Shown in pieces: positions 3,159-31,632 of a DNA stretch of 64,000 nt. Below the pieces are notes generated by a model. It saw nothing but the letters and a program-made list of their open reading frames with translations. It was not told the origin of the DNA and made no database searches. Made by a program: the position numbers and the translations under genes. The DNA comes from a virus. The stretch's first letter is position 1, and each line of letters begins with the position of its first letter. The stretch is from the IMG/VR virus record IMGVR_UViG_3300002835_000063, positions 32,001-96,000 of that record. One strand, given 5' to 3'.

Positions 3159-3165
3159 GCCACAT

Positions 3166-3194
3166 AAAGTAGCAAAGATCAATTAGTTTGTCAA
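3166..3194 (-). promoter_or_regulatory. SigA-type promoter TTGACA-17-TACTTT, leaderless
   Basis: Consensus -35, 17-nt spacer, TG extension, ATG 7 nt downstream. Confidence 0.7.
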
Positions 3195-10854: not shown

Positions 10855-11217
10855 ATGAGCGCCCCAGCCGGTTTATATAACATAGTGGCCGATCAAGGCT
10901 CAACGCTTTCGCGCATTATTTATTACAAAGATCCAGCTAAGAAGCCAATCAAATTTAATGGATATACAGCCCGTATGCAAGTCAGACCATCTGTAGATAG
11001 CTCTAACGTAATTTTGGAACTTACTACCGAAAACGGCGGTATCGAACTTGGCGCAACAGACGGAAGTATTTCTTTGTACGTAGAAGACACAACCATGATT
11101 ACGATTCCCGAAGGAATCTATGTTTACGATTTAGAGCTCATTGCCCCGTCAGCCAATTTGTTTGTGTACAAAATTCTTCAAGGCAACTTTGCAGTTAGGT
11201 CGGAGGTAACCAGATAA
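10855..11217 (+). CDS. virion adaptor-like beta-sandwich protein, first gene of fibre operon A
   Basis: DQGST...GYTARMQVR...YVYDLE...ILQG.F.VRSEVTR; paralogue of 25954..26331. Confidence 0.7.
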   Translation: MSAPAGLYNIVADQGSTLSRIIYYKDPAKKPIKFNGYTARMQVRPSVDSSNVILELTTENGGIELGATDGSISLYVEDTTMITIPEGIYVYDLELIAPSANLFVYKILQGNFAVRSEVTR

Positions 11218-11924
11218 TGGCAGGATACACAGTTAGTTCGGTTACTTCAGGTAAGTACGCAAGACAAATTTCTGTTGCAGCCTCTGGTCCACAAGGAGCT
11301 CAGGGCCCAACAGGTCCGGCAGGCTCGGCTGGAGCAACAGGCCCCACAGGCCCCACGGGAGCTCAAGGATCCGCGGGGGCTGGCCTCAGTGCTACTTACA
11401 AATTTAATAATACTACTTCTGCTTCTAACCCAGGCGGCGGCTATTTAGCATTCAATGCTTCCGATCTTTCCTCTGCTACCAGGCTGTATATTTCAACTAC
11501 CGACTCTTCGTTAGATGCGCAAACAGGACTGTTGTCTGCTATGACTCAGTCTACTAACACTTACAAATCAATTATTACAGTCCAGTCAACCACTAATCAA
11601 AGAAATTTTATTAGGTTTTACGTCAGATCTGTGACCGACGAGTCGGGCTGGAAAAACTTTTTGCTGGTTCACTTAGATGGAACGGTTACGTCTTTTACAT
11701 ACAACCAAGCCCTTTCTTTGTTGGTTGCACCCATTGGTGATGCTGGCACTATAGCCAATTTTGAGGACCTAAATGACGTAGACTTTAACACTCCGTTAGA
11801 TGGAGATGTCGTAGTTTACGACCAAGCAAATTCTATGTGGACCAATGTCGCTTCTAGTCAGCTAAACATATCGGGTCAAAATATTTCAGGTACAATTGAG
11901 GGGGGAAGCGCCAATACCTTTTAG
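11217..11924 (+). CDS. structural protein with a short collagen-like segment
   Basis: About 10 Gly-X-Y triplets, a DLNDVD...DGDVVVYD...W motif, C-terminal IEGGSANTF. Confidence 0.75.
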   Translation: MAGYTVSSVTSGKYARQISVAASGPQGAQGPTGPAGSAGATGPTGPTGAQGSAGAGLSATYKFNNTTSASNPGGGYLAFNASDLSSATRLYISTTDSSLDAQTGLLSAMTQSTNTYKSIITVQSTTNQRNFIRFYVRSVTDESGWKNFLLVHLDGTVTSFTYNQALSLLVAPIGDAGTIANFEDLNDVDFNTPLDGDVVVYDQANSMWTNVASSQLNISGQNISGTIEGGSANTF

Positions 11925-14345: not shown

Positions 14346-16568
14346 ATGGCAGTCAGAATTCAGTTTAGGCGCGGAACAGCCGCAGAGTGGGTAGCCGCCA
14401 ATCCGACGCTGGCAGTAGGAGAGCTTGGTCACGAGACCGATACCGGCCAGTTTAAGATCGGTAACGGATCAGCCGACTGGGCAAACCTTGTCTACTCTTC
14501 TGTGAGTGAATCATATGTCGATAATGCTATTGCAAATATAATTGACCTTGCTCCAGCAACTCTTGACACTCTAAATGAGCTAGCAGCAGCACTCGGGGAC
14601 GACCCAGACTTTTTTAATACCGTTGCCAACAATCTAACCGCCCACATCTCAGACACAAGCGTTCACGGGATAGAAAATACTTTAGAACTTGCAACTAGTA
14701 CTGATGTAGCAAACATTTTGGGACAACACTCAGGATCAACAGTTAACGTTCATGGAATTGCAAATACTGCTGAACTAGTACTAAATTCACAACTAGCAGA
14801 CTACACCACTACCGCCAATTTAGTCAATACTTATGCTACTATTGCATCTCTAGCAGACTATGCAACCACAGCAAACGCAGTTTTAACCACTCCAAGTATC
14901 AATGACGCTACTATCAATAATGTTTCTGTAGTTGGAACTGTTACTCTGCCAGATACCACTTCTATTGGAGGTGTTAGTGCTACTGAAATATCATATTTAA
15001 ACAATGTAAGTTCTAGTATTCAAAATCAGCTAAACGATAAAGCACCAACTGACAATGCAATTTTCACTGGAAATATTTCTCTGCCAGCGACAACATCTAT
15101 TGGAGATGTAAGCGCCACCGAAATTGGATATCTAGACAACGTAAGTTCAAATATTCAGGTTCAGTTGGATGCTAAGGCCCCAACAGCTAATGCTAGCTTC
15201 ACCGGATCTATTGCCTTGCCAGCTACTACATCTATTGGAGACATTAGCTCTGCTGAAATTGGATATCTAGATAACGTAAGTTCCAATATTCAAGCTCAGT
15301 TGGATGCCAAGCTTTCCACTTCTTCAGCTGCTAGCATTTACGCCCCACTATCTGACCCAACATTTATTAGCACTGTTACCCTGCCAGCTAATACTACGAT
15401 TGGTTTAGTTACCGGTACAGAAATCGGATATTTAGATAACGTAACTTCTAATATTCAGACTCAGCTGGATGCAAAGGCCCCGACAGCCAACCCCACCTTT
15501 ACAGGCACCGTTTCTGGTATTACAGCAACAATGGTTGGACTTGGAAGCGTTGACAATACCGCTGATTTAGACAAGCCAATTTCTAACGCAACTCAGAGTG
15601 CTCTTGATGCCAAGCTAAGCCTAAGCGGCGGAACAATGACTGGCAAGATTACTCTTGACGGAGATCCATCACAGGCACTGCACGCTGCTACTAAGCAGTA
15701 TGTAGACAATCTTGCAGCCGGTCTCCACATCCACGAGGCCGCTCACGCAGCGACTACCGACACACTGGCAAACTTAATAGCTTCAACTGTTACATATGAC
15801 AATGGAACTGATGGAGTTGGAGCTACCCTAAGCTTGGGAGCAAACCTAACTACACTTGATGGCCACACACTAAACAATGGTGACAGAATTTTGGTTAAGA
15901 ACCAAGCAAACGCTGCTCACAACGGTATTTATGTTCGCACTTCGGCCACCCTACTAACCAGAGCTGATGACTTCAACAGCGCCGCCGAGATTGCTGGTGG
16001 AGATCTAGTATTCGTAGAAAATGGAACTCTCTACAACAGCACTGCCTGGGTAGTCGAGAACGAAGTAAGTACTGTAGGAACTGATGACATTCTTTGGGCT
16101 CAGTTCTCTGGAGCTGGAACGGTTACTGCTGGAACCAATATTCAGGTAGACGGTCTTCAAGTTTCGGTAATTTCTAACCCAACTTTTGCAAACGTTGTAA
16201 CGGCAAGCAGCGGTGTTGCTTTCTCAGATGGAACTCAGACCAAACAGGGTGTCCCCTCAATAACGGTAATTAGCCCTAAGAGTGGTTCCTACACCTTAGC
16301 AAGCTTAGACGAGCGCGACACAATCATTGAGATCAGCAATACAAGTGCTACCACACTCACTATTCCACTTGATTCGACCCTAAACTTCCCGGTTGGAACC
16401 ACATTGGACATCATCCAAACCAACACCGGGCAAGTGACCATAGCTGGCGAGGGTGGAGTAACCGTAAACGCCACCCCAGGCCTAAAACTAAGGGCCCGCT
16501 GGTCATCTGCTACACTATTAAAGCGAGCAGCAAACACTTGGCTGGTATACGGCGACCTGAGCGCTTAA
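14346..16568 (+). CDS. tail-fibre-like protein with an Mtd-N-like N-terminus
   Basis: RIQFRRGTAAEW; APATLDTLNELAAALGDD; four LP.TTSIG..S..EI.YL.NV.S.IQ.QL repeats; shares the GDRILVKNQ domain with 12321..14063; ends WLVYGDL. Confidence 0.82.
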   Translation: MAVRIQFRRGTAAEWVAANPTLAVGELGHETDTGQFKIGNGSADWANLVYSSVSESYVDNAIANIIDLAPATLDTLNELAAALGDDPDFFNTVANNLTAHISDTSVHGIENTLELATSTDVANILGQHSGSTVNVHGIANTAELVLNSQLADYTTTANLVNTYATIASLADYATTANAVLTTPSINDATINNVSVVGTVTLPDTTSIGGVSATEISYLNNVSSSIQNQLNDKAPTDNAIFTGNISLPATTSIGDVSATEIGYLDNVSSNIQVQLDAKAPTANASFTGSIALPATTSIGDISSAEIGYLDNVSSNIQAQLDAKLSTSSAASIYAPLSDPTFISTVTLPANTTIGLVTGTEIGYLDNVTSNIQTQLDAKAPTANPTFTGTVSGITATMVGLGSVDNTADLDKPISNATQSALDAKLSLSGGTMTGKITLDGDPSQALHAATKQYVDNLAAGLHIHEAAHAATTDTLANLIASTVTYDNGTDGVGATLSLGANLTTLDGHTLNNGDRILVKNQANAAHNGIYVRTSATLLTRADDFNSAAEIAGGDLVFVENGTLYNSTAWVVENEVSTVGTDDILWAQFSGAGTVTAGTNIQVDGLQVSVISNPTFANVVTASSGVAFSDGTQTKQGVPSITVISPKSGSYTLASLDERDTIIEISNTSATTLTIPLDSTLNFPVGTTLDIIQTNTGQVTIAGEGGVTVNATPGLKLRARWSSATLLKRAANTWLVYGDLSA

Positions 16569-16583
16569 TTAGGAGAGAATTAA

Positions 16584-17960
16584 ATGAGCAAGAGAGCTGG
16601 AAGAAAGTCTCAGGCTTCTAATGACTTTTTAGAGCCAAAAGCCCCGATTAACGTATCTGCTACGGACGTTGGAACTGCCCGTGCCTACAATGATGGCGCT
16701 GCTAGCGTTTCTTTCGAGTTACCAGGAGACTCGCCAGCCGCTACTTCTTATGAAGTTAAAGCATATAAAAATGGAACCACTCTCGACACTACCGCAACTG
16801 GAACAACGGGGGCAAGCTCTCCTATCACAGTTGGCGGGCTAGATTCTGCCACTGGATATACTTTTACAGTATCTGCAACTAACGCTGCTGGCACATCGGC
16901 AGATTCAGCCGCATCTGCTTCTGTAACCATTACAACCGTCCCACAGGCTCCGCAAAGCCCATCAGCCACTTCTACAACTGCTAATCAAGACATCATCTCT
17001 TGGTCAAACGGTGCTAATGGTGGGAAAGCCATAACTAGCACATATTTTGTGTCAAGTGACCAGACCACAAATCCAGGCAACGTAACCATGACCACCAACC
17101 CATGGACTGAGCCAGAAAACGGTGGTTCAACGCAGAACTATACTCTGTATCACGTAAACGATAATGGAACCTCAGCAGGCGCTTCTACCGCTAACGTAAC
17201 TACGATTGCACCATTCTTCCCACCATTCTTCCCACCGTTCTTCCCATTCTTCCCGCCTTTCTTCCCGTTCTTCCCACCGTTCTTCCCACCGTTCTTCCCA
17301 CCATTCTTCCCACCATTCTTCCCGTTCTTCCCACCTTTCTTCCCACCGTTCTTCCCGCCATTCTTCCCACCATTCTTCCCACCGTTCTTCCCACCGATGT
17401 TCCCATTCTTCCCACCGTTCTTCCCACCGTTCTTCCCACCGATGTTCCCATTCTTCCCACCGTTCTTCCCACCTAGATTCCTATGTATTGAAGAAAACAC
17501 AATGATCTTGACACCTAGAGGAGAGATCGCGGCTAAGGATCTTCGAGCAGGAGATACGGTATTGTCAATAGCAATTAATGAGATTGGCAATAACTCTGTT
17601 ACCCCAATTGAATTCACTGTTGGTGCAACTTTGACGAGCACATCGCAGCTAGTCGAGACAAAGATTGTTGGAATTCTAGAGACCGTAAAGACCGGAATAA
17701 CTTACTTCAACGGTAGGTCAGAGGCCAGATATTCTAGCCAGCAGCCACTGTTTGTTAAGTCTGATGGAGAATTCCAGGTAAAGATTGTTTCTAACATTAA
17801 GCTTGGAGATGCTCTCCTGCTGATTAATCCAGATGGAACATACACCGAAGAAGAGGTAACCGAAATTACTCTAGTTTCGGAGCCGGCCAATGTATTCCAA
17901 TTCTCCTGCGAGCCATATCACTGGTTTATAGCTGGTGGCTACTTGGCCCACAATAAGTAA
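16584..17960 (+). CDS. FN3 domains + (PPFF)n tract + C-terminal Hint (intein-like) domain protein
   Basis: FN3 motif VGGLDSATGYTFTVSATNAAGTS; 88-residue P/F tract; CIEENTMILTPRG...DLRAGDTVLS ... HWFIAGGYLAHNK-stop. Confidence 0.85.
   Translation: MSKRAGRKSQASNDFLEPKAPINVSATDVGTARAYNDGAASVSFELPGDSPAATSYEVKAYKNGTTLDTTATGTTGASSPITVGGLDSATGYTFTVSATNAAGTSADSAASASVTITTVPQAPQSPSATSTTANQDIISWSNGANGGKAITSTYFVSSDQTTNPGNVTMTTNPWTEPENGGSTQNYTLYHVNDNGTSAGASTANVTTIAPFFPPFFPPFFPFFPPFFPFFPPFFPPFFPPFFPPFFPFFPPFFPPFFPPFFPPFFPPFFPPMFPFFPPFFPPFFPPMFPFFPPFFPPRFLCIEENTMILTPRGEIAAKDLRAGDTVLSIAINEIGNNSVTPIEFTVGATLTSTSQLVETKIVGILETVKTGITYFNGRSEARYSSQQPLFVKSDGEFQVKIVSNIKLGDALLLINPDGTYTEEEVTEITLVSEPANVFQFSCEPYHWFIAGGYLAHNK
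17211..17474 (+). repeat. coding tandem repeat (PPFF/PFF/PPMF) x23 + PP
   Basis: 12-nt and 9-nt units CCN-(CCN)-TTC-TTC; Pro codons vary (CCA/CCG/CCT). Confidence 0.98.
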
Positions 17961-17978: not shown

Positions 17979-18017
17979 ACCCCCCTTATGATTAGTAAGG
18001 GGGGGTGTTTATTTTTT
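17979..18017 (+). terminator. intrinsic terminator ending fibre operon A
   Basis: ACCCCCCTTA-tgattag-TAAGGGGGGGT followed by GTTTATTTTTT. Confidence 0.75.
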
Positions 18018-18066: not shown

Positions 18067-18801
18067 ATGAATACTTGGTTCACAAAAGACAGATCAGAGA
18101 CTGACTCTAATCGAATGCCCCCAAGACCACTGGGCCAAAAAATACAAGTATTAAACCCTGCCTTAGGGATAAATGTATATCGTGGCGCAATAACAAAAGA
18201 AGAGGGCAGGGCTTGCGTAGACATTTTAGAGTCAACCTTAAATGGCCAAACTCAATACAAATGGAGTGATGCTCAAGTTACAAATTCTTCAAAGGCTAAC
18301 CTAGAAGCAAGAAATGCCAAAGATTTTAAATTTAATTCGACTGGCCTAGGGCCAAAAAATGAAGAAAATGAAAAATTATATGAAATGCACGAAAAAATTT
18401 TTAGGGCAGTAAAAGCATGTGTAGATGATTATGGTTATTACTGGGGCGTTGGGATAATGTCATATGAGGCTTTTAACTTTGTTAAGTATGAAGGAGCCGG
18501 GACCCACTTTAAAATTCACGCAGATCATGGCCCAACATATGTAACTACGGTGTCTATTGTCGTGTATCTCAACGATGATTATGAGGGGGGAGAACTTTGG
18601 TTTCCCCGATTTGATTTAACCCTAAAACCACAAGCTGGAGATATAGCAGTTTTTCCGTCAACATACATCTACGAACACGCTTCGCAGGACATGATTAGTG
18701 GGACTAAGTATTCTGTTGTCATTATGAGCGACTATAATGACAGAGATAATGTAAACCAAAGAGTGCCTCAAACCATTCAAAATTATCAACTTAAGTACTA
18801 G
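18067..18801 (+). CDS. P4H-like 2OG-Fe(II) oxygenase #1
   Basis: HAD...YLNDDYEGGEL.F...YEHAS...KYS; TATAAT at 18030-18035. Confidence 0.9.
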   Translation: MNTWFTKDRSETDSNRMPPRPLGQKIQVLNPALGINVYRGAITKEEGRACVDILESTLNGQTQYKWSDAQVTNSSKANLEARNAKDFKFNSTGLGPKNEENEKLYEMHEKIFRAVKACVDDYGYYWGVGIMSYEAFNFVKYEGAGTHFKIHADHGPTYVTTVSIVVYLNDDYEGGELWFPRFDLTLKPQAGDIAVFPSTYIYEHASQDMISGTKYSVVIMSDYNDRDNVNQRVPQTIQNYQLKY

Positions 18802-18812
18802 AAAGAGCCAAA

Positions 18813-19583
18813 GTGTCAGAACAGATCAACAAAACCGAAGAAGAAGTACGCCTAGAGGCAGAACAAAAAAGTAAAGAAGAGCAAAAAAATATACACGAGC
18901 GGCTAGTAAATTGGTACAAAATTGACGAGGTGACTTGGAGTTCAGCAGAAGAAATTGTTCCTGGCAGCGGCATTTGGGTATACCATGATGTTTTGCCCGC
19001 CGAGATGAATATAATTTCTCGGTTAGAAGAAGTTTTAGATAATCCAGAAAATAACTATCAGTACCAAGAAGCAATGGTCGGATATGCAATGAAAATCCCG
19101 GAGTACCGAGACTGCGTAGATTTTAAATACAAAGAGAATGACTTTGACAATGATCAGTCAGAGTGGGGTGACAAGCTTCGACAGTTGGCAAAAGATACAA
19201 AGTATAGACAGCTACAGGTAGTAAAAGATTACACAAGAAGATATAACATCGGCGAACTTCGTTACTGGGAAGCAACCAACTATGTTCGCTATGGAGTTGG
19301 CCAACACTTCCAGGAACATCACGATCACGGGTACTCCTACAACTGTGTAGTTTCTTTGGTTGCGTACCCAAATGACGACTACGAAGGCGGTGAGCTTTAT
19401 TTCAGATTACAAAACATAACTGCTAAAGCCCGCGCTGGCGATGTTTTTATTTTTCCCTCTAATTTTATGTACCCACACAGGGCAATGCCAGTTAAGTCTG
19501 GAGTTAAATACTCTATGGTTACTATGCTTGATTACTCAGAAAAACTACACAATCCAGAATTTTTTAAGGAGCTAGAGAACTAG
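18813..19583 (+). CDS. P4H-like 2OG-Fe(II) oxygenase #2
   Basis: HHD...YPNDDYEGGEL...YPHRA...KYS. Confidence 0.9.
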   Translation: MSEQINKTEEEVRLEAEQKSKEEQKNIHERLVNWYKIDEVTWSSAEEIVPGSGIWVYHDVLPAEMNIISRLEEVLDNPENNYQYQEAMVGYAMKIPEYRDCVDFKYKENDFDNDQSEWGDKLRQLAKDTKYRQLQVVKDYTRRYNIGELRYWEATNYVRYGVGQHFQEHHDHGYSYNCVVSLVAYPNDDYEGGELYFRLQNITAKARAGDVFIFPSNFMYPHRAMPVKSGVKYSMVTMLDYSEKLHNPEFFKELEN

Positions 19584-20329
19584 TGTCAATAGTTTCGATA
19601 CAAAAGCTTTTTAAAGAGGGAGACGTTGCAAATATTGAGCAACTTCCAGCCCGTAGAGACTGGATGGATCAAACTCAGGACAAACATGCCTACATGTGTT
19701 TTCCCTTAAATCTAACAAACAGGCTTGGTTGGTCAATATCTTTTCCGGAGGATATTTCTTTTATTTGGGACGGAGTAACAGATACTTCTCCAGATCATGT
19801 AAAAATTTTAAAAGGAGAAAAATTTGTTCACCCAACTAGGGGAAATGCAACAATTAGTTTTTTAACTGGTTTAAAGTTCACAACAGACCAAAATACTTCT
19901 ATATTGGCAATGCCAGTACCCAACTTGTTTATCAGGGGGGCGCAGTGCTACACAACTCTGATGAGCACCTCTTTTTATATACACATGCTTCCACTGGCCT
20001 GGAGAATTACTGAACCAAACATAGAAATAGAAATACCAGCCGGAACCCCCGTAGCTTCAATTTTGCCAATCTCTTTAACAAATCTAGAGAACGACTACGA
20101 ACTTCAAATTACCGAGGACCTGCCAGACGGATCCTACTGGGAAGAAGTTAGAAAGTATGGCGATGCAACCATAATTAAAAATGGCGCGGGCGACTGGTCA
20201 AAAATGTATAGAGATGCCCTAGACTATAACGGAAATTCTGTTGGCTCTCATGAAACTAAATCAATAAAATTAAAAACTGTAGTATGCCCGGCTACAGGAA
20301 AAAACTATGAAATAGAGGAAACTATTTAA
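19583..20329 (+). CDS. DUF6065-like protein
   Basis: RDWMD.T...HAY.CFPL..TN.LGW.I..P.D; GTPVA.I.P. Confidence 0.7.
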   Translation: MSIVSIQKLFKEGDVANIEQLPARRDWMDQTQDKHAYMCFPLNLTNRLGWSISFPEDISFIWDGVTDTSPDHVKILKGEKFVHPTRGNATISFLTGLKFTTDQNTSILAMPVPNLFIRGAQCYTTLMSTSFYIHMLPLAWRITEPNIEIEIPAGTPVASILPISLTNLENDYELQITEDLPDGSYWEEVRKYGDATIIKNGAGDWSKMYRDALDYNGNSVGSHETKSIKLKTVVCPATGKNYEIEETI

Positions 20330-21069
20330 TGGAAACTAAAAAAATTAAGTTTGTAGTAAATAGACCTTGGTTAAGTAAAGAAAGTAGTTCTCTGCCAAAA
20401 CCAACAATAAAAACTATTCCAGATTGGTACAGAGAGGGGGATCGATATGCAAAACATCCAGTAACTGGAGAGTACTGGAAAGATCCGCAGAATGGCGGAA
20501 AAATTCCAACTTGGAAAGCTTGCCCATCGGTATATGACATCATGGGCTCTGGCTATGTTTACAGGACTCCCTGCGACATTGAATTTAAAGAAAATATTTA
20601 CGGACAAATAGAAGCCAAAGTTTTAGACGAAAAAAATAAAGACTTTTTGCAACTTAGAACGCCCATGCCAGGATTTAAAGCTCCAATGGGATACCACGAT
20701 GTTCATTTTGCGTGGTGGGCTGATTGGGCGGTCGAATTGCCCGAGGGGTATAGTGCACTTTACTCCCAGCCGTTTAATAGATTTGAACTGCCGTTTATTA
20801 CAACTAGTGGAATTATTGATAACGACAAAGTCCATTTGCCGGGGACAATGCCATTTTTTGTTGTAAAAGGATTCCAAGGAGTTCTACCAGCAGGAACTCC
20901 GTATGCTCAGATCTTGCCATTTTTAAGAGAGCACTGGGAATCTGAAATTGTAGATTCCATAGGTTACGAAAAAATGGTACAAAAAAATATGGACAACAGC
21001 CAAAAATACAGGGTCCCAGACGGCGGGGTTTACCAAAAAGATGTCTGGGAACGAAGAAAATACGAATAA
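20329..21069 (+). CDS. DUF6065-like protein (second type)
   Basis: IPDWYR...TWKACP...GY...P.D; PEGYS.LY.QPFNR..LPF....GIID.D; GTPYAQILPF. Confidence 0.65.
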   Translation: METKKIKFVVNRPWLSKESSSLPKPTIKTIPDWYREGDRYAKHPVTGEYWKDPQNGGKIPTWKACPSVYDIMGSGYVYRTPCDIEFKENIYGQIEAKVLDEKNKDFLQLRTPMPGFKAPMGYHDVHFAWWADWAVELPEGYSALYSQPFNRFELPFITTSGIIDNDKVHLPGTMPFFVVKGFQGVLPAGTPYAQILPFLREHWESEIVDSIGYEKMVQKNMDNSQKYRVPDGGVYQKDVWERRKYE

Positions 21070-21083
21070 GATAAACTAGACCC

Positions 21084-21767
21084 ATGAGAAACGACTACAC
21101 AAATAACAACATTACTCCATATATGTCAATAACCCCTTCAGGATTTTTTGGCGATTCTGCAGAAAATATTGTTGCTATTGACGACTTTATGACCGAAGAA
21201 GAATTAACCTATCTAAACAATTTTGCTAGGAAAAATACCATGTGGGACGCAACCGAGACTCACTATAACGAAGATGGTACAGTGATTTATGACTCTTCTT
21301 ACTGGGATCATCGAGTTGCAACGGCTCCCATATTAAAAGAAGCTGATATAAAAGTAGTTGAACTAATATCTGATATGCAAGATAGATTAAAGAAAAAAGT
21401 TGATACTTTTTTCGCAGTGGATGCTCATCCCACAAGCCCGGCGCTAGTTAGGTGGCTACCCGGACAAAGACAGCAACCGCACGCAGATAAAGAACTACAT
21501 GAGGGCGAGGGCAGGGGGAAGCCAAATGACTTCCCATACTATGACATAGCTGGCCTTTTTTATATAAACGATGACTATGAGGGAGGAGAGCTATATTTCC
21601 CTAACCAAGGTATTCAATTTAAACCAAAAGCCGGATCAGCTTACTTTTTTCCAGGAGACATGAATTATATCCACGGAGTCACAGAAATCAAGTCTGGAAT
21701 TAGATATGTTTGCCCATTTTTCTGGACAATAAAAGAGCACACTGGCAACCACAAACCAAATTTATAG
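21084..21767 (+). CDS. P4H-like 2OG-Fe(II) oxygenase #3
   Basis: HAD...YINDDYEGGEL...YIHGV...RY; TAAACT lies 6 nt before the ATG. Confidence 0.9.
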   Translation: MRNDYTNNNITPYMSITPSGFFGDSAENIVAIDDFMTEEELTYLNNFARKNTMWDATETHYNEDGTVIYDSSYWDHRVATAPILKEADIKVVELISDMQDRLKKKVDTFFAVDAHPTSPALVRWLPGQRQQPHADKELHEGEGRGKPNDFPYYDIAGLFYINDDYEGGELYFPNQGIQFKPKAGSAYFFPGDMNYIHGVTEIKSGIRYVCPFFWTIKEHTGNHKPNL

Positions 21768-21798
21768 TAGAATTATCATCAACAAGCAAGGATCTAAA

Positions 21799-22578
21799 AT
21801 GCATTTAGCCCAGAAACTACACGAAGAAGTTTATCTATACGAGGATGTAATTAGTGATCCCAAAAAACTTATTGATTTAATTGAAGAATTAGATGAAGAC
21901 GAAACTGTCCAAAGCGTAATTCCAGAATGGGGCTTTTGGTTTTCAAACAGCCGTGACGGTCACAGTTTCGGCAGTAAAAAAGATTTTAATCCAGAAGCCT
22001 TAGATCAACTAGACTCATCTAGAAAAGAAGATGTTGAGTTTATAGTAAAAGAAATTCAGAGTGGTGTAAAAAATGTTGCAGAATCCTACTACAAAGATAG
22101 AGGACTAGAGGGTCAACCACAAATATCTCCGTTTGTTGGAATTATGAAGTACCGCCCAGGCTGCGAAATGGGCGCACACTTTGACGCTCAGGCCGGAGAT
22201 AGAAGTTTAAAGTATTCGATTGTGATGTATTTAAATGACGACTATGAGGGCGGAGAGATCTCCTTTATTATTAGACCATATGATTTAAGAAACCCAAAAA
22301 ATTTCCACCTTCAACCATCAACCGATGCTGACGACCCCAAAAATAAAGATCTCACAGACTTTACGCTAAAACCAAAAGCTGGATCAGCATTAATTTTTCC
22401 CTCTACTCATCCGTATAAGCACCAAGTTCACATAATTAAGGGTGGAGATAAGTATATTTTCCCTGGTTTTGTTTTTCAAGATGATTTTGATCCAAATGAT
22501 CCAGCTTCTAGAGAAAAATACAATGCCGGATCTCTATACGAAAAGCCAACCGAAGACGTTTATTTCGACGAAGACTAA
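21799..22578 (+). CDS. P4H-like 2OG-Fe(II) oxygenase #4
   Basis: HFD...YLNDDYEGGEI...YKHQV...KY. Confidence 0.9.
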   Translation: MHLAQKLHEEVYLYEDVISDPKKLIDLIEELDEDETVQSVIPEWGFWFSNSRDGHSFGSKKDFNPEALDQLDSSRKEDVEFIVKEIQSGVKNVAESYYKDRGLEGQPQISPFVGIMKYRPGCEMGAHFDAQAGDRSLKYSIVMYLNDDYEGGEISFIIRPYDLRNPKNFHLQPSTDADDPKNKDLTDFTLKPKAGSALIFPSTHPYKHQVHIIKGGDKYIFPGFVFQDDFDPNDPASREKYNAGSLYEKPTEDVYFDED

Positions 22579-22582
22579 TAAA

Positions 22583-23197
22583 ATGTATGAGGCCATTTCG
22601 CCAAAAGTTCTATACTTTAAAAATTTTTATAAAGACACAGAAAAGTTTTTAGAGGCTATAGAAAGCTCCCCACCCTGGGAACCATGGAATTCTCGGGGTG
22701 GCCAAAATATTTTTACTTACGGAGTATTAAAAACATTTCATACCCAAGAATACAAACAAATAGCAGATATTAATCAAAAAAATTCTAGTAAATTTATTAT
22801 TAATGCCATGAAAAAAATAAATTTAGTCTGCGGATCAGAGTATTTAAAACATTTTCAATGCTCGGACAATGAATTAAGTAGATTAAAAAAGTCCATTTTA
22901 ACGGATAAAATAATTATTGGCGTAAAAAAATATTTTGAGGGGGGGACCACCCTAGGCCCACACCCAGACGCGGACCTACAATCATCAAAAGATGAAATAA
23001 GCATAACTTTTTATCCAAACGATAATTATGAGGGCGGAGAATTAAATTTTCCCGATTTGGGGCTAACAATTAAACCAGAGGCCGGAAGTGTGGTCATATA
23101 CCCATCAAAATATTTACATGAATCTTTCCCCGTTCCCACGGGAGAAAAGTTGGTGTCTAATCACGTATACATTGGACTGGAAAAAATATGGAAATAA
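22583..23197 (+). CDS. P4H-like 2OG-Fe(II) oxygenase #5
   Basis: HPD...YPNDNYEGGEL...YLHES...K; start corrected to ATG 22583 (MYEAISPK). Confidence 0.85.
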   Translation: MYEAISPKVLYFKNFYKDTEKFLEAIESSPPWEPWNSRGGQNIFTYGVLKTFHTQEYKQIADINQKNSSKFIINAMKKINLVCGSEYLKHFQCSDNELSRLKKSILTDKIIIGVKKYFEGGTTLGPHPDADLQSSKDEISITFYPNDNYEGGELNFPDLGLTIKPEAGSVVIYPSKYLHESFPVPTGEKLVSNHVYIGLEKIWK

Positions 23198-23844
23198 AAT
23201 ATGAAATACCTTACGAGAATATTGTTTATTTTCCAGAAATTGTTCCGGACGTAGATAACATAATTTCTTCAATAGAGTCCACAAATAGTCTAGCTATAAC
23301 TAAATGGGAAATTTGGAATGCTTATGGAGAATCAGACGGGGATCCATATGGCGAAGTAAAATACATGAGCAAACATCTTTTAGATGCAGAGACTAACCAA
23401 AAAACTGTAGAAACCTCAAAATATATAATTTCTACGCTAATAAGTTCAATGTCATTAGCAGCCGAAACTTACGCAAAAATATATAACATTGATTCTAACC
23501 TTTTGCAGTATGCAATTGATGCATTAAATATGCCTGGCACAAAATATGGAATAAACAAATATTTTGAGAATCAATACATGGGACCACACGTTGACTGGAA
23601 TGAGTACAACTCCGACATTACTTATACCATTGTTGTTTACTTGAACGATGATTACGAAGGCGGGGAGCTATTTTTTGTGGATCCGGACATAAACATAAAA
23701 ATAAAACCTAAAAAGGGAAGCATAGTAATGTTTCCATCTGTCCTGCCATATCTGCATCAATCCTGTGAGATTACTAAGGGAAGAAAAATGCTGATAACTC
23801 ATCACTGGAAAAATGATTCACTATCAAGAAACAGGACTTACTAA
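23188..23844 (+). CDS. P4H-like 2OG-Fe(II) oxygenase #6
   Basis: HVD...YLNDDYEGGEL...YLHQS...RK. Confidence 0.9.
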   Translation: MEIKYEIPYENIVYFPEIVPDVDNIISSIESTNSLAITKWEIWNAYGESDGDPYGEVKYMSKHLLDAETNQKTVETSKYIISTLISSMSLAAETYAKIYNIDSNLLQYAIDALNMPGTKYGINKYFENQYMGPHVDWNEYNSDITYTIVVYLNDDYEGGELFFVDPDINIKIKPKKGSIVMFPSVLPYLHQSCEITKGRKMLITHHWKNDSLSRNRTY

Positions 23845-24698
23845 TGTCAATTAATGTAAATCTTATTGAAGTTTTTTCTAAAGAAGATCTCTATTCTAGA
23901 CTAAACGAAATTTTAGATGTTCAAACTAAAAATTCCATTGTTGGGATTAGAGGAGTTAGGCTTACTGAAGAAGAGCAGCTACAGCTAGCCAGAGATCTCG
24001 GAGACATAGCTGGCTGGTTCCCAAACAACACCGACAAATTTAATCACAAATATATTGAAAATCACTCTGCCAACCCATCGGTGGGAGCCTCTTCAAATAA
24101 CGAATTAATTTTAAGCTGGCACCTAGAGCGCGTCGATTATGACGAATATCTTTTGTTGGTGGCTGGCGTTTGGAACATGAGACTTTTTAATTGTGATCCA
24201 GAATCGGGTAAAACATATTTTATAGATTCCAGAAAAGTGTTCCAAAAAATTTACAATGAAGATGAAAAGAATTTTTTGCGAGGCTGCAAAGCCTACTGGA
24301 CAGAACAAACGCCAAGCGGCAATACACGCACTAATTATGTAAAGATTGTTCAGCCCCATTGGAAGACCGAAGAAGAACAAATTAGAGTTGAGCTACACCA
24401 TATGGCTGCAATTAAATTGTACAAAATAAACGATAATGACCCAACTTCAGAAGAAGCGGCCGCCTTTGAGTCATTAATGAAAAGATTTTCTCAAGAAATA
24501 GCAAACAACGAAGATTTAAGAATAATTCACAAATGGAAAGAGGGAGACATCCTCATTCCAGATCTTTTCTCTCTAGCGCACGCCGTCACGGGCGGATTTG
24601 ACCCCAAAGACAGAGAGTTTACCGGATACTGGTGCTATACGGCGTCTCCCTCTAGTGTTGGAGAAGACAATGTCCCGCCATCTTGGAGGGGTGAATAA
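23844..24698 (+). CDS. TauD/TfdA/CAS-like 2OG-Fe(II) dioxygenase
   Basis: WHLE, G.TYFID, HKWKEGDILIPD....H...R pattern. Confidence 0.75.
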   Translation: MSINVNLIEVFSKEDLYSRLNEILDVQTKNSIVGIRGVRLTEEEQLQLARDLGDIAGWFPNNTDKFNHKYIENHSANPSVGASSNNELILSWHLERVDYDEYLLLVAGVWNMRLFNCDPESGKTYFIDSRKVFQKIYNEDEKNFLRGCKAYWTEQTPSGNTRTNYVKIVQPHWKTEEEQIRVELHHMAAIKLYKINDNDPTSEEAAAFESLMKRFSQEIANNEDLRIIHKWKEGDILIPDLFSLAHAVTGGFDPKDREFTGYWCYTASPSSVGEDNVPPSWRGE

Positions 24699-24700
24699 GC

Positions 24701-25171
24701 TTGAACGATTTAAATCCAACAAATGAAGTATATGTAAATCAATACAAAGAAGCTGTAAAACAAAATAAAGCAAATTCTTATATGCTCACTATTGCCAGAG
24801 ACGGCGAATCACCAGTCAGGTCAATTTATTTTTATGATAATGCAGTAGACGCCACTATTGGATATGAAGCATACCAAGACTGGGGATTTGCTAAAGACTA
24901 TCTAACGGTGGAGCTATATGAGCCAACTGGAAGGGTTCACAGCAAAGTTTTGCGCAGGCCTCGCGGTGGAGAGTGCACTTTTGAGCGGGCACAGTACTAC
25001 CAAATTTCTGACATAATAAACGCCGTTAAGCCAAAAGTAGACGAGGAAGCATTCAACTACCTAGCCTACGAGTTTGCTAAGCTATTCTCGAAGGACAACC
25101 AAAGGTTTAATCCAGAGCGATTTTTAGAGACGCTGGGATATACAGGAGAAATAAATGACAGATCTGTCTAA
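24701..25171 (+). CDS. hypothetical protein within the oxygenase array
   Basis: 156-aa ORF, tightly packed; C-terminal F..DN.RFNPERF motif. Confidence 0.6.
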   Translation: MNDLNPTNEVYVNQYKEAVKQNKANSYMLTIARDGESPVRSIYFYDNAVDATIGYEAYQDWGFAKDYLTVELYEPTGRVHSKVLRRPRGGECTFERAQYYQISDIINAVKPKVDEEAFNYLAYEFAKLFSKDNQRFNPERFLETLGYTGEINDRSV

Positions 25172-25889
25172 GATCGAGACTACCCCGACAGAGTTTGGCG
25201 ATAAGGGATTTATCAAAGAAGATATTGTTTTTTACAATAATTTTCTAACCCAAGAAGAGTGTGAGACCCTGGTTAGAGTATTCGAGGACGAAGAGCAACC
25301 CTGGAGCATGTCAGCTTTTTTTGAGTCGTACGGCATGAGTATTATGCCAGAAGACCCGATTTTAGAGCGATACGGGTTACCTAGAGATTACTTTGGGAAA
25401 CTAGCAGATAGGCTACATAAGGTAGTAGAAGATGCCCACGAGCGTCCAGTAAAATCAGTTTCGTCTCATGCCCAGAAGTGGCAAATAGGGGCGTTTGCTC
25501 CATTTCATTCAGACAACACCGACATGGATGGAAACCCGTCTGCCTGGGAGAAAAGCAAACTTGTCTGCCTCTTGTACATAAATGACGACTATGAGGGCGG
25601 AGAGCTAGACTTTAGGGATCACGATATCTCGATCAAACCGGTGGCGGGCCAGTTAATTACTTTCCCCGGCGGATTTAATAACATCCACCAAGTGTTGCCA
25701 GTGAGGGGCTCTACGAGACATACCATTGGAGCTTTCTGGGATTATGCCGAATCGGTCTACTCCGAAGAGCGCATGAAGCAATGGGAAGATGAAATCCAAA
25801 AGGTCCGAGAAGAGCAAAAAGTCATGCAGGACGAGTGGAAAGAAATGGTTGCCAAGGGGGTCCACCCCACGGATCCGGGCGCTCAATAG
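25155..25889 (+). CDS. P4H-like 2OG-Fe(II) oxygenase #7
   Basis: HSD...YINDDYEGGEL...NIHQV...RH; coiled-coil C-terminus. Confidence 0.9.
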   Translation: MTDLSKIETTPTEFGDKGFIKEDIVFYNNFLTQEECETLVRVFEDEEQPWSMSAFFESYGMSIMPEDPILERYGLPRDYFGKLADRLHKVVEDAHERPVKSVSSHAQKWQIGAFAPFHSDNTDMDGNPSAWEKSKLVCLLYINDDYEGGELDFRDHDISIKPVAGQLITFPGGFNNIHQVLPVRGSTRHTIGAFWDYAESVYSEERMKQWEDEIQKVREEQKVMQDEWKEMVAKGVHPTDPGAQ

Positions 25890-25953: not shown

Positions 25954-26331
25954 ATGAGTCATTTGCGTGGCAATATCCATGATCTAATCACAGATCAGGG
26001 ATCTACTGTACACCAGGTATTTACTATCAAAAACTCGGCTCGTCGGATAATCCCCCTAACCGGGTATTCGGCTCGTATGCAAGTCAGACGTTGGGACGTG
26101 GAAACCAGGGATCCCGTCCTAACAACTATCGCTGAATATACAACTGCAAACGGATATCTAACCGTCAACGGTGCCGCGGGAACCGTGACTCTTCTTATTC
26201 CGCCCGCCGATATGGCAGCATACGAGCCAGGTTCTTATGTTTACGACATCGAGGTCGAGACAGCAAATGCTGGAGATACCACTCGGATCATCCAGGGAAA
26301 ATTTATTGTGAGAGCTGAGGTAACCAAGTAG
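25954..26331 (+). CDS. virion adaptor-like protein, first gene of fibre operon B
   Basis: DQGST...GYSARMQVR...YVYDIE...IIQGKF.VRAEVTK; paralogue of 10855..11217. Confidence 0.7.
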
Positions 26332-28742
26332 TGGTACTCTCTGACAATTTTGCATATGTAGACGTTAAAGGTCCTGGACCTCAAGGACCTGCAGGACCAA
26401 CAGGACCTGCAGGACCAGCAGGTGGACCAACTGGACCCACAGGTGTCACGGGACCGACAGGTGCAACGGGACCATCTGTTACAGGTCCAACAGGTCCTAC
26501 TGGACCTACTGGAAACTTAGGTCCTACGGGCCCAACAGGTCCTCAGGGTATTGCAGGTTTGTCAGTCACCGGTGCAACTGGTGCAACTGGAGCAACTGGT
26601 GCAGCCGGTGCTACAGGACCAACTGGAGCACAGGGTATTGCAGGTTTATCAATTACTGGACCAACTGGTGCTGCAGGCGTTGCAGGTCCAACAGGACCAA
26701 CCGGTGCAACTGGTGCAGCAGGTTCTGATGGACTAAGCATTACTGGACCAACTGGACCAACTGGTGCTGCAGGCGTTGCAGGTCCAACAGGACCTACTGG
26801 GTCGCAAGGTATTGCTGGTTTATCAATTACTGGACCTACCGGTGCGCAAGGAAACGTGGGCCCAACTGGTGCAACAGGACCTACTGGGTCGCAAGGTATT
26901 GCTGGTTTATCAATTACTGGACCTACCGGTGCTCTTGGTCCCACTGGTCCCACTGGCCCTACGGGCCCAACTGGCGCAGACAGCATGGTTACAGGTCCGA
27001 CTGGTCCTACAGGACCCACAGGTCCTACCGGAGCAACTGGAGCAACTGGTGCAGACAGCATGGTTACAGGTCCGACTGGTCCTACAGGACCCACAGGTCC
27101 TACCGGAGCAACTGGAGCAACTGGTGCAGACAGCATGGTTACAGGTCCGACTGGTCCAACCGGTGCAACTGGACCTCAAGGAATATCACTAGAGCTAATT
27201 GGATCAGTAGAGAATATAATTGATCTACCGCCCAGTGCAAATATTAACGAAGCATATATTGTCCAAGCCGATGGAAATCTTTATGTGTGGGACGGCGCTC
27301 AATGGGTAGATGTTGGCCAAATTGTTGGACCCATTGGACCGACTGGCCCAACTGGCCCAACGGGAGCAACTGGACCTCAGGGCAATCAGGGCATCCAAGG
27401 TGTTCAAGGCGACACCGGACCCATTGGACCGACAGGCGCAACTGGCCCAGAAGGAAATTATTATGTTGGAGATAATCCTCCACTAACTCCTACAGAGGGC
27501 GATGGTTGGTTCAACACTTCTACAACAAAATTCTTTATTTACTACGACAATTTTTGGATTGAAGTTGCCACCACCGAGCGAGGCCCAACTGGAGCGACTG
27601 GAGATACAGGGCCAGCTGGACCAACAGGTTCCACCGGAGCGACTGGAGATACGGGACCTCAAGGTATTCAGGGTGTAACTGGACCTACCGGAGCGACTGG
27701 AGATACGGGACCTCAAGGTATTCAGGGTGTAACTGGACCTACCGGAGCGACTGGAGATACGGGAGCTACGGGCCCTACCGGAGCGACTGGAGATACGGGA
27801 GCTACGGGCCCTACCGGAGCTGATGCACTGTGGAATTTCACTGGACCATATCAAATAGGGTCTTCTTATGCAGTGGGCGATGTTGCTACCTATGGTGGAC
27901 AGACTTGGTATCGCATAGACGCAAATGGTGGAAACACCGGAGACACCCCATCAGAGGGAACATTCTGGACATTGATAGCGCAAGCAGGAGCTATCGGCGA
28001 CACAGGCCCTACTGGAGCGACTGGAGACACTGGACCTCAAGGTATTCAGGGTGTAACTGGACCTACCGGAGCGACTGGAGACACTGGACCCCAAGGGCCA
28101 ACTGGACCAACGGGTGACACAGGCCCGACGGGCCCGACGGGATTGGGTATTCCACTGGGTGGCGACACCGGTCAAATTTTGGCAAAAGACTCTCCAGCCG
28201 ATGGCGACTATGTTTGGGTTGACAACTATGCTGATTGGACTGCTGTTGTTAAGCACGAAGTTAGAGCAGAGCAAGTATTAACAAAAGGTCAAGCTGTCTA
28301 TGTTAGCTCTTCTGATGGCACCAACATGCGAGTCTCTAAATCGTCTAATGCTACAGAATCAGCATCAAGCAAAACCCTGGGAATTATTGCTCAGAATTTG
28401 GCAGTAAACGGTCAAGGCTTCGTAATAACAGAGGGCCTTCTAGCTGGTCTAAACACATCGACCGCTACAACTGGAGATCCAATTTGGCTTGGAACTGATG
28501 GAAACTTAATTTTTGGCTTAGCAAACAAGCCATCAGCTCCAGCTCATTTAGTTTATTTAGGTGTCGTAACTAGAGTAAATCTTAACAATGGTGAGATATT
28601 TGTTAAGGTTCAAAATGGATTTGAACTGCAAGAACTTCACAATGTAAAAATTAACGGCATCCAAGGCGGCGATATTTTGTCTTACAATGCAATTAGCCAG
28701 CTTTGGGAAAATATTCATGTTGTTGACGGAGGTACGCCATAA
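26331..28742 (+). CDS. collagen-like (Gly-X-Thr rich) fibre protein, 803 aa
   Basis: Long GPT/GAT/GDT tracts interrupted by globular modules; ends VDGGTP. Confidence 0.9.
26976..27157 (+). repeat. 75-bp tandem repeat (about 2.4 copies)
   Basis: Units start at 26976, 27051 and 27126; encode [25 protein letters not shown]. Confidence 0.9.
27633..27820 (+). repeat. 54-bp then 27-bp tandem repeats
   Basis: ACCGGAGCGACTGGAGATACGGGA units at 27633, 27687 and 27741. Confidence 0.85.
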
Positions 28743-29542
28743 TGGCTATTGATTTTCCAAATAGTCCGTCTATAGGACAACAAGTTTCTGCAAATGGCAC
28801 CATCTGGGAGTGGGATGGAATTGCTTGGGTTGTAATTGGGACACCTGTTTCCATTGGCCCAACTGGACCAATCGGGCCAACTGGACCGCAAGGCAGCCAA
28901 GGAATTACTGGTCCAACAGGAAGCACTGGTCCAACAGGCGCTGACAGCACAGTACCGGGACCAACCGGACCAACTGGACCCCAAGGAGATACGGGTCCAA
29001 CAGGCATTCAAGGAAACGTGGGTCCTACCGGACCACAGGGAATTCAAGGCCCAACCGGAGCAGTTGGTTCCCAGGGTGTGCAGGGTGCAACAGGTCCAAC
29101 TGGACATCAAGGTGATACAGGACCAACTGGCGCAACAGGAGACACTGGACCTCAAGGAAACATCGGAGACACAGGGCCTGCAGGACCGACTGGAGCAACT
29201 GGAGACACAGGGCCTGCAGGACCGACTGGAGCAACTGGTGCAACTGGTGCAACTGGACCTACAGGAGCAGATGGAACATTCTTAGTTTCAAGCTCAGTGC
29301 CGCCAACCCCCACCGAGGGTCAAATTTGGTTTAATTCAGTTGAAGGTAAATTATTAATTTTCTATGACGGTTTTTGGGTAGAAACAATTGTCGGTGAGGT
29401 TGGAGCGACAGGACCAACCGGTCCAGCGGGGAGCTCTACTTTGTATACTCCAACAACACCATTAGATTGGGTCACCACCCCAAATACTATCTCTGAAGCA
29501 TTAGATCAACTTGCTAGTAGAATAAAAGCACTAGAACCGTAG
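28742..29542 (+). CDS. collagen-like fibre protein
   Basis: MAIDFPNSP...WEWDG..W N-domain followed by a Gly-X-Y tract. Confidence 0.88.
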
Positions 29543-29553
29543 GATAAACATAA

Positions 29554-30753: not shown

Positions 30754-31632
30754 ATGGCATCATATGCGGGAGACGGGGCCTTTAGCCTAAGAAATACTGT
30801 ACGGTTGTATGTACAGATAGAAACAACTTTGGTGGCTGGGGGAACTGAACTTTATATTACAGCCTACGCTCAAAGAGACCCCGGTGAAACTAGAACTCCA
30901 AATAGTTCTATTGCAACTAAATCCTACAGCGTGCCAGGAGGAAGAAGCGGCGGAGCGACAGGATCTCTTTTAGAGTCTGGATCAGCCAACTGGACTTATA
31001 ACTGGGCAACGGGAGATCCACAAATTGTTTGGAGCGGATTTTTTAGGTATATACAATTTGGACCAGGATCTGTTACCGTAAATATAGGTGCCCAGGGGGG
31101 AGGAGTAATTGGCACTGCTTCAGTTAACGTAAATGTACCCTTATTTTCTGCACCGCCATTCTTCCCACCGTTCTTCCCACCTTTCTTCCCGCCATTCTTC
31201 CCACCGTTCTTCCCACCGTCGCCGTACTGGGTAACAAATACTTTAACTTCTAGTACAGCTATAGAGGGTCAGGCATACTCCAGCACCTTCTCGGCCGTTC
31301 ACGTAAATAGTTATGCGCTATTTAGTGGAAGTTTGCCATCAGGAATTTCAATCAACTCGAGCACCGGAGTTTTATCTGGAACACCGGCCCAAGGATCAGC
31401 TGGAACTTATAATTTTGTAATTAGTGCGTCTGGGGACGGCGGAACTATTTACACTGGAACACTTACTTTAACTGTGGCCGATGATGGCGGAAAAGTAAGA
31501 GTTTATAATTCAAGCACAGGACAGTGGGAGGAAGCAACGGTTTATGTATATAACTCGGCTACTTCTCAGTGGGTTCAGTCAGATTTGTATGTTTACAATA
31601 GCAGCACTGGAACTTGGGTAAAAAGCGTTTAG
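30754..31632 (+). CDS. virion protein with a (PPFF)5 tract and putative Ig (He_PIG-like) domain; last gene of fibre operon B
   Basis: SAPPFFPPFFPPFFPPFFPPFFPPSP; GSLPSGISINSSTGVLSGTP...GTYNFVISA; three VYNS.T..W repeats. Confidence 0.8.
   Translation: MASYAGDGAFSLRNTVRLYVQIETTLVAGGTELYITAYAQRDPGETRTPNSSIATKSYSVPGGRSGGATGSLLESGSANWTYNWATGDPQIVWSGFFRYIQFGPGSVTVNIGAQGGGVIGTASVNVNVPLFSAPPFFPPFFPPFFPPFFPPFFPPSPYWVTNTLTSSTAIEGQAYSSTFSAVHVNSYALFSGSLPSGISINSSTGVLSGTPAQGSAGTYNFVISASGDGGTIYTGTLTLTVADDGGKVRVYNSSTGQWEEATVYVYNSATSQWVQSDLYVYNSSTGTWVKSV
31153..31218 (+). repeat. coding repeat (PPFF)5-PP
   Basis: Same CCN-CCN-TTC-TTC unit as 17211..17474. Confidence 0.97.

Follow-up and report, generated by a model that had tools for sequence, protein, structure and literature searches.

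Proline-rich repeats, Hint domains and phage arrays of 2-oxoglutarate- and iron-dependent (2OG-Fe(II)) oxygenases are each known, but their combination in one locus has not been described. All three occur together in a 64,000-nucleotide (nt) stretch of viral DNA, referred to here as the window (positions 32,001 to 96,000 of IMG/VR record IMGVR_UViG_3300002835_000063, which is 108,880 bp long with an estimated completeness of 65%). The element in question is a tract of proline and phenylalanine within a 458-amino-acid (aa) protein, where it joins a pair of fibronectin type III (FN3) domains to a C-terminal Hint domain. The protein belongs to a previously undescribed family of tract-bearing fiber-region proteins from uncultured aquatic phages, present at more than 200 IMG/VR loci.

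Several described systems resemble parts of this locus. Nucleoporin FG-repeats and aromatic "sticker" domains are likewise uncharged low-complexity chains with regularly placed Phe, and the FGFTPFG and AFGAFG tracts that occupy the same place in part of the phage family are nucleoporin FG-like. There is no homology, however, and the Pro-rich tract, in which Phe-Phe pairs occur and Pro makes up 43%, is expected to be far stiffer; it would also be extracellular and virion associated rather than pore lining, and its cohesiveness is putative. C-terminal chaperone domains of the Peptidase_S74 type in phage tailspikes and fibers cleave themselves off, leaving a shorter mature protein. The Hint domain shares with these the C-terminal position and the expected self-removal, but the folds are unrelated, the chemistry of Peptidase_S74 depends on a Ser-Lys dyad and not on a thioester, and the present protein comes without evidence for trimerization.

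The Hint domain is closest to bacterial intein-like (BIL) and Hedgehog Hint domains, which have the same fold, a Cys at position 1 and no nucleophile at +1, leading to cleavage or transfer and not to splicing; type A BILs end in His-Asn, as the window copy does (PMC4031507). The window copy differs from both in standing at the C terminus of a phage fiber-region protein, directly past a Pro/Phe polymer, in carrying a Gln in block B, in lacking a sterol-recognition region and in scoring below Pfam thresholds, and its activity is putative.

For the repeat and the oxygenases, there are viral precedents. According to the account given in PMC7019647, the prolyl 4-hydroxylase (P4H) of the chlorovirus PBCV-1 hydroxylates the virus's own Pro-rich repeats (Eriksson et al. 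1999). These repeats and the hydroxyproline (Hyp)-rich glycoproteins of plants and algae are, like the tract, long Pro-rich repeats of the polyproline-II type built from short units of variable length, and PBCV-1 also has P4H-type enzymes of its own. In contrast to PBCV-1, the repeat in the window is half Phe and uncharged, with neither Ser nor Lys, it is accompanied by seven oxygenase paralogues plus DUF6065 genes, the host is prokaryotic, and hydroxylation is hypothetical. Synechococcus phage Syn9 carries a tandem array of 2OG-Fe(II) dioxygenases with a small dUTPase-fold conserved-Cys protein, for which secondary-metabolite synthesis was proposed and no substrate protein identified (Iyer et al. 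2010; PMC2938197). Both arrays contain several classical 2OG-Fe(II) dioxygenases; the array described here always adjoins a Pro/aromatic tract protein.

The Pro/Phe tract and its carrier protein

We favor, with a probability of roughly 0.6, the explanation that the tract serves a virion fiber-module protein as its tail or stalk, extended, uncharged and studded with Phe, and that Hint autoprocessing sets the C terminus of this protein. The gene and its parts are the following:

16584..17960, plus strand: gene of the 458-aa FN3-FN3-(P)PxF tract-Hint protein (open reading frame (ORF) list, Pfam fn3, homologues, AlphaFold2 (AF2) model)
16584..16643, plus strand: N-terminal peptide, aa 1-20, MSKRAGRKSQ..NDFLEP (conservation in two family alignments)
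16644..17210, plus strand: two tandem FN3 domains, aa ~21-209 (AF2, fold and PDB profile matches)
17211..17480, plus strand: Pro/Phe tract, 24 P(P)xF units including PPRF, aa 210-299
17484..17957, plus strand: C-terminal Hint (BIL/Hedgehog-like) domain, aa 301-458 (fold and profile matches)
17980..18004, plus strand: terminator-like hairpin (10-bp stem, six GC pairs, T-rich tail)

A reading of this DNA made earlier from its letters and ORFs (the sequence-only reading) had reported the Pro/Phe tract, and its coordinates, frame and unit count all hold. Positions 17211-17474 on the plus strand are codons 210-297 of the 458-aa ORF and encode 88 residues, of which 42 are Pro, 44 are Phe and 2 are Met; as assembled, they fall into 23 units (15 PPFF, six PFF and two PPMF). 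PPRF (aa 296-299), Leu300 and Cys301 follow. Apart from Arg298 the tract is uncharged, with a grand average of hydropathy of +0.65, and its computed length as a full polyproline-II helix is ~28 nm. Tandem Repeats Finder describes the DNA as 23.3 copies of a 12-nt period (81% matches, score 327) with higher-order periods of 33 and 45 nt, which indicates recent block duplications. The tract is no assembly artifact in kind, as it recurs, encoded by different DNA, in hundreds of independently assembled metagenomes.

All 44 Phe codons of the tract are TTC, as the sequence-only reading had stated, against a TTC share of only 31% in 15 large genes of the window. The Pro codons are CCA (25), CCG (14) and CCT (3), with no CCC. 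The alternation of these codons had also been taken as a sign of selection on the peptide, and this part of the argument is weakened: among the 18 PP pairs, CCA encodes the first Pro in 16 and CCG the second in 10, so the variation is mostly position specific within the 12-nt unit and the evidence from a single sequence is weaker than thought. Selection on the peptide is instead evident from comparisons across genomes, given below.

The carrier gene is the last of a fiber operon. It starts 15 nt past the stop codon of fiber gene 14346-16568, which is of the Mtd_N type (Pfam Mtd_N, E=3.4e-15), and the hairpin at 17980..18004, 20 nt 3' of its own stop codon, closes the operon. Mtd_N-type fiber genes also lie upstream in all 141 related loci with at least 4 kb of upstream sequence. 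The FN3 domains are recognized by Pfam (fn3, E=1.7e-7), and an AF2 model built from a 102-sequence alignment has a mean predicted local distance difference test (pLDDT) score of 85 overall and of 94-98 in the FN3 pair. By fold the pair matches the FN3 tandems of titin, LAR and PTP-delta with Z scores of 13-15, and PDB profile matches agree. Residues K3, G6, S9, N13, D14, F15 and P18 of the N-terminal peptide are invariant or at least 90% conserved in two family alignments, and the peptide motif occurs a single time in the 108.9-kb genome. By its conservation, the peptide is likely the docking end of the protein; alternatively, it may be a processing site.

The tract is not confined to this protein. 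The only further one in the same genome lies in a gene downstream:

31153..31212, plus strand: second PPFF tract, five units plus PP, inside gene 30754-31632

There it joins an N-terminal domain to a He_PIG Ig-like domain (Pfam He_PIG, E=7.7e-13), and a P(P)xF tract of 18-46 aa stands at the same junction in 24 of 26 homologues, one of which has PPNF/PPDF units. Searching with the tract alone against a library of 1.84 billion proteins returned eight matches, which are no census, as the composition correction of HMMER probably suppresses such hits. They include a 1,479-aa protein with the tract ahead of an FN3-like domain, small proteins with the tract as a C-terminal tail and proteins with Cys-rich regions after the tract. 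The tract is a portable module, used as an internal connector or as a terminal tail.

Conservation, selection and length variation in the family

More than 600 homologues of the 458-aa protein, nearly all without a name, are present in a collection of 5.8 billion proteins. For a census we fetched ~230 IMG/VR loci, which yielded 151 distinct complete proteins. No match among cultured phages was obtained with blastn, and the sole tblastn match, in Phage NCTB, covers the Hint domain only. Neither of the two tract protein families has a PHROG, and a literature search linking PPFF to phages found nothing relevant; in the papers on phiCbK and CBB, Hint comes up solely in connection with inteins of terminase or ribonucleotide reductase.

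All 151 relatives have an aromatic tract after the FN3 pair, 15-186 aa long, with 34-59% Phe/Tyr/Trp and at most 1.2% charged residues. In 102 of them it is of the Pro/aromatic flavor (Phe 51%, Pro 43%), with units that are mostly PFF (40%) and PPFF (40%), then PPYF (5%), PYF (5%) and PPRF (2.5%); Phe ends 97% of the 2,046 units of this type. Another 40 relatives have a Phe/Gly/Thr/Pro tract (FGFTPFG, AFGAFG; hereafter FG-type) with 38% Phe. Gly and Thr replace Pro here while Phe density is kept, so that the conserved properties of the tract are Phe density and absence of charge, which argues for aromatic contacts being more important than backbone stiffness. The proposal of a stiff, adhesive or self-associating rod in the sequence-only reading thus survives in part: an aromatic virion element fits the position at the end of a fiber operon, between FN3 and Hint, and the use as linker or tail elsewhere, whereas stiffness is made less certain by the Gly/Thr variants. 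Orthologues with arbitrary low-complexity linkers in place of the tract would have refuted that reading; among the 151 relatives the orthologous tracts are never arbitrary. The family adds a new kind of aromatic low-complexity material, in which Phe density and not backbone stiffness is the conserved property.

Selection was measured in five independent close pairs with tracts of equal length. The tracts differ by 41 synonymous and 3 nonsynonymous changes (F/Y twice, S/T once), and the N-terminal (FN3) domains of the same pairs differ by 85 synonymous and 32 nonsynonymous changes. Pro and Phe codons offer ~3.5 times as many nonsynonymous as synonymous sites; the 41 to 3 ratio despite this excess indicates very strong purifying selection on the Pro/Phe frame, stronger than that on the FN3 domains. 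Three frames that overlap the tract (17150-17641, minus strand, GGKNGGKN...; 17200-17472, minus strand, GRTVGRM...; 17206-17505, plus strand, HHSSHRSS...) were rejected as genes and are by-products of the repeat, because changes that are synonymous in the Pro/Phe frame would be nonsynonymous in them. The preference for TTC is general, at 91% of Phe codons in the Pro-rich tracts of the family compared with 44% in the rest of the same genes, and may reflect avoidance of T runs or translational preference.

Tract length changes quickly. Twenty-five pairs with at least 95% identity over the N-terminal 600 nt differ in assembled tract length, for example 39 versus 74 aa at 100% N-terminal DNA identity, and the frame is kept in 210 of 210 complete genes. 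The pattern points to units of 9 and 12 nt that are gained and lost rapidly and in frame. Copy number had been suggested to act as a contingency locus; the length does vary, but always in frame, which amounts to tuning and provides no on/off switch.

The Hint domain and the proposed processing of the tract end

The Hint domain begins one residue past the last tract unit, with Cys301 following Leu300. AF2 models aa 301-458 with a pLDDT of ~95. Foldseek with the whole model returned FN3 matches only, and the Hint match came from a wide VIA structural search, which retrieved the Hedgehog autoprocessing domain (1at0; Z 17.3, root mean square deviation (rmsd) 2.1 Å over 134 aa), the NpuDnaB intein (4o1r; Z 17.3), the BIL2 domain of Tetrahymena BUBL (6tmm; Z 17.0) and a Clostridium thermocellum BIL domain (2lwy; Z 16.9). 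Overall, the rmsd of these matches is ~2 Å across 132-138 residues, and Cys301 is aligned with residue 1 of several inteins. A profile of the family against the PDB likewise matches BIL domain 2lwy (E=3.7e-8).

The chain ends in His456-Asn457-Lys458 and a stop codon, leaving neither a C-extein nor a +1 nucleophile. Without a C-extein bearing Cys, Ser or Thr at +1, an intein is ruled out. The window copy has the features that define type A BILs, namely a C-terminal His-Asn and no +1 nucleophile (PMC4031507), and, as many family members lack the His-Asn, both type A-like and type B-like forms occur in the family. Block B of the window copy reads Ser384-Ser-Gln-Gln387, with Ser384 at the Thr position and Gln387 at the His position, and is not of the form Thr-x-x-His.

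Across 79 Hint domains of the family, position 1 is always a nucleophile (Cys in 41, Ser in 38), and the block B Thr position holds Ser or Thr in 73. At the block B His position, 58 have His and 16, including the window copy, have Gln, and the domains end with Asn in 40 cases and with Asp in 34. Gln is the commoner residue nearer to the window copy, at 80 of the 101 nearest Hint-bearing homologues. All 80 of these Gln-type homologues keep Cys1 at only 20-35% Hint identity, and the His-Asn end is kept in 30. Retention of Cys or Ser at position 1 with frequent loss of the terminal His-Asn places the conserved chemistry at the N-terminal junction of the Hint domain, where the tract has its C-terminal end. 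By the same conservation, the Gln-type domain would be active.

The Hint domain is present in 78 of the 151 relatives, where it starts a median of 5-6 residues past the tract. The other 73 have none and reach a stop codon a median of 15 residues past the tract, and no Hint remnant was detected downstream of the Hint-less genes in 94 loci. Hint presence has changed ~17 times on a tree built from the N-terminal domains. After the tract, Hint-less proteins have a short acidic tail, a Cys-rich knot of 8-32 residues or nothing at all. The knots, seen at several IMG/VR loci and in proteins P0195 and P0200, hold 3-9 Cys, as in ...SYCWQACP.CCG.CGC, and might be an alternative C-terminal cap that acts through disulfide cross-linking or metal binding. 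At FG-type loci such as L202, L204, L032 and L233 the Hint domain has Ser at position 1 and His-Asp-Ser in place of His-Asn, and these copies do have a C-terminal extension, a tail of ~50 residues (...LNAPGVITSPEQ...NPVDPNNPP).

Taken together with the position of the gene, these features suggest how the protein could work. The N-terminal peptide and the two FN3 domains would form its constant end and the tract its variable distal part. Closely spaced aromatics would make the tract cohesive or adhesive, toward itself, toward other fiber proteins or toward a hydrophobic or carbohydrate surface, and Pro, or Gly and Thr in some relatives, would prevent it from folding up or turning into amyloid. 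Through Cys301, the peptide bond between Leu300 and Cys301 would become a thioester, which, as there is no C-extein, could only be hydrolyzed or passed to an outside nucleophile. Self-removal of the Hint domain by way of this thioester is the most likely outcome and coupling to a partner the less likely one. Once the domain had removed itself, the Pro/Phe tract would be the C terminus, a state that occurs natively in the Hint-less half of the family. If so, the protein exemplifies the natural use of a Hint domain at the terminus of a putative virion protein.

Several points weigh against this explanation. The family has no member in a cultured phage, so the virion location is deduced solely from gene order and the FN3 domains, and the case for adhesion or cohesion is one of composition alone. 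AF2 gives the tract a pLDDT of ~50 and no secondary structure, a low confidence that fits disorder and an oligomeric structure beyond the reach of AF2 alike. The Pfam Hint models (PT-HINT, Hint_2 and Intein_splicing) score aa 301-457 at 17.4-18.4 bits, below their cut-offs of 27.7-35.8, and the block B His, the most conserved residue of inteins, is replaced by Gln387 in the window copy (PMC4031507), which makes self-cleavage of this particular protein putative. Finally, the tract length differences between near-identical contigs, including the 25 pairs above, could in part reflect collapse of the repeat in short-read assemblies.

Alternative explanations and the neighboring genes

The alternative that survives best is compatible with the favored explanation and concerns the genes that follow the hairpin:

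18067..25889, plus strand: oxygenase cluster with seven P4H-like 2OG-Fe(II) oxygenase paralogues (Pfam PF13640) and one uncharacterized gene
19583-20329 and 20329-21069, plus strand: two tandem DUF6065 genes (Pfam PF19541)
23844-24698, plus strand: TauD-like oxygenase (Pfam PF02668)

We consider these genes candidate tailoring enzymes for the tract. It is possible, at somewhat less than even odds, that the tract is mainly a substrate, in which the seven P4H-like oxygenases, perhaps with the DUF6065 proteins, would hydroxylate the prolines to yield a Hyp/Phe polymer. Such a polymer would resemble extensins or mussel adhesive proteins. Besides their PF13640 matches, the oxygenases have PDB sequence matches only to the P4H of Bacillus anthracis (E=1.3e-6 for 18067-18801), and their nearest relatives in cultured phages, at 25-30% identity, are those of cyanophages. 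The PBCV-1 enzyme, as presented in PMC7019647, sets a viral precedent.

The distribution of these genes follows the type of tract. In a census with a hidden Markov model built from the window's seven paralogues, covering the 8 kb downstream at loci with at least 7 kb of downstream sequence, P4H-like genes were found at all 99 Pro-rich loci, with 2-9 copies each (mean 6.3 with Hint, 6.7 without), and two or more DUF6065 genes accompany them at every one of the 99. At FG-type loci the number of P4H-like genes is 0-4 (mean 1.4), with none at 12 of 52, and one or more DUF6065 genes occur at 38 of the 50 FG-type loci that bear a Hint. A single locus with a tract of the "other" type has six P4H-like genes, and its tract has PPAFF/PPVFF units. 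Uncorrected for ancestry, Pro fraction and P4H count correlate with a Spearman rho of 0.77. Independent contrasts with good support on the tree number only three, of which two agree with the prediction and none goes against it, so the association of tract and oxygenases is not separable from shared ancestry.

Other evidence on this point is divided. Collagen-like sequence, the classical P4H substrate, is also encoded in the window at 26331-30735, and collagen-like content is somewhat higher in Pro-rich loci, but at 22 of 34 such loci a collagen-like run is absent from the surrounding ~10 kb; this count does not tell collagen and tract apart as the partner of the P4H-like enzymes. A terminator separates the tract gene from the oxygenase cluster, and similar cyanophage arrays were proposed to make secondary metabolites (PMC2938197). 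Proline hydroxylation by the adjacent oxygenases is a good but unproven proposal. It would supply a concrete candidate substrate to the 2OG-Fe(II) oxygenase arrays of phages, a role for which has been sought since 2010 (PMC2938197).

Three minor observations belong to this cluster and its surroundings. The collagen-like (Gly-X-Thr/Pro) fiber genes of the window, at 26331-30735 and 11217-11924, border the oxygenase cluster on its far side and would provide alternative or additional substrates for P4H-like enzymes. The DUF6065 family is mostly viral (Atlas) and may be the dUTPase-fold conserved-Cys protein that lies beside the Syn9 array (PMC2938197). Oxygenase ORFs 21799-22578 and 22442-23197 overlap by 137 nt as listed, and the second one probably starts further downstream.

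A second alternative gives the Hint domain a different outcome. Here it would be a coupling device, in which an amine, hydroxyl or thiol attacks the thioester at the tract end; it would belong to a virion partner, a lipid or the host surface, to which the FN3 pair becomes tethered covalently through the tract. Hedgehog is joined to cholesterol in this manner, and the BIL domains of Tetrahymena BUBL conjugate a ubiquitin-like domain. The fold scores to these same two proteins (Z 17.3 to the Hedgehog domain and 17.0 to BUBL BIL2, 6tmm), the universal nucleophile at position 1 alongside a dispensable C-terminal Asn, the Cys-rich knots of several Hint-less relatives, which could form disulfide links instead, and the use of the tract as an internal tether between domains in other families all speak for coupling. 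Yet many Hint-less relatives end in short acidic tails or in nothing, which fits a free C terminus, no sterol- or adduct-recognition region follows the Hint domain, and the acceptor would be one not yet known, and we regard coupling as unlikely. Less likely again is the conjunction of all these ideas, an adhesive fiber with a Hyp/Phe polymer made by the P4H-like enzymes, the end of which the Hint thioester couples covalently to a virion partner or a host-surface molecule. If true, such an enzyme-built, coupled fiber would be a viral counterpart of extensin- and mussel-type materials combined with Hedgehog-type chemistry.

We hold it very improbable that the tract is functionless, slippage-prone filler, whether a neutral flexible linker or a phase-variable on/off repeat. 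The 81-84% identity of its units, the recent 45-nt duplications and the differing tract lengths of near-identical genes are what such filler would show. Against it stand the ratio of 41 synonymous to 3 nonsynonymous changes, tighter than in FN3, a composition kept in 151 proteins though the flanking domains are 35-60% identical, the intact frame of all 210 complete genes, units of 9 and 12 nt, and a choice of TTC over TTT that avoids T runs.

The least credible alternative, which the sequence-only reading had raised, is a multicore precursor of ribosomally synthesized and post-translationally modified peptides that releases linear or cyclic PPFF peptides: the motif does resemble cyclolinopeptide and antamanide, and tailoring-type oxygenases adjoin it, but these are the only points in its favor, as adjoining units are not separated by any recognition or cleavage sequence and both their number and their x residue vary, the tract is embedded in a 458-aa protein of three folded domains and works as an interdomain linker in other families, no maturation enzyme of the Peptidase_S9 (prolyl oligopeptidase, PF00326), YcaO (PF02624) or radical SAM (PF04055) families was found in the 108.9-kb record (~65% complete), and the only S8 protease is proteinase K-like, 14 kb away and on the other strand.

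That protease is a proteinase K/aqualysin-like subtilase (1869-3182, minus strand; Pfam S8, E=1e-37), and its match to PDB entry 8c4z (E=1.9e-70) rules it out as a cyanobactin-type (PatA/PatG) protease. Elsewhere the phage encodes a family-A DNA polymerase, a primase-helicase, a ribonucleotide reductase and a tape-measure protein. Beside the subtilase lie genes for a GT61-family glycosyltransferase (3218-4192, minus strand) and a sugar nucleotidyltransferase (4275-5024, plus strand), and the three may form a glycosylation or processing set for virion proteins.

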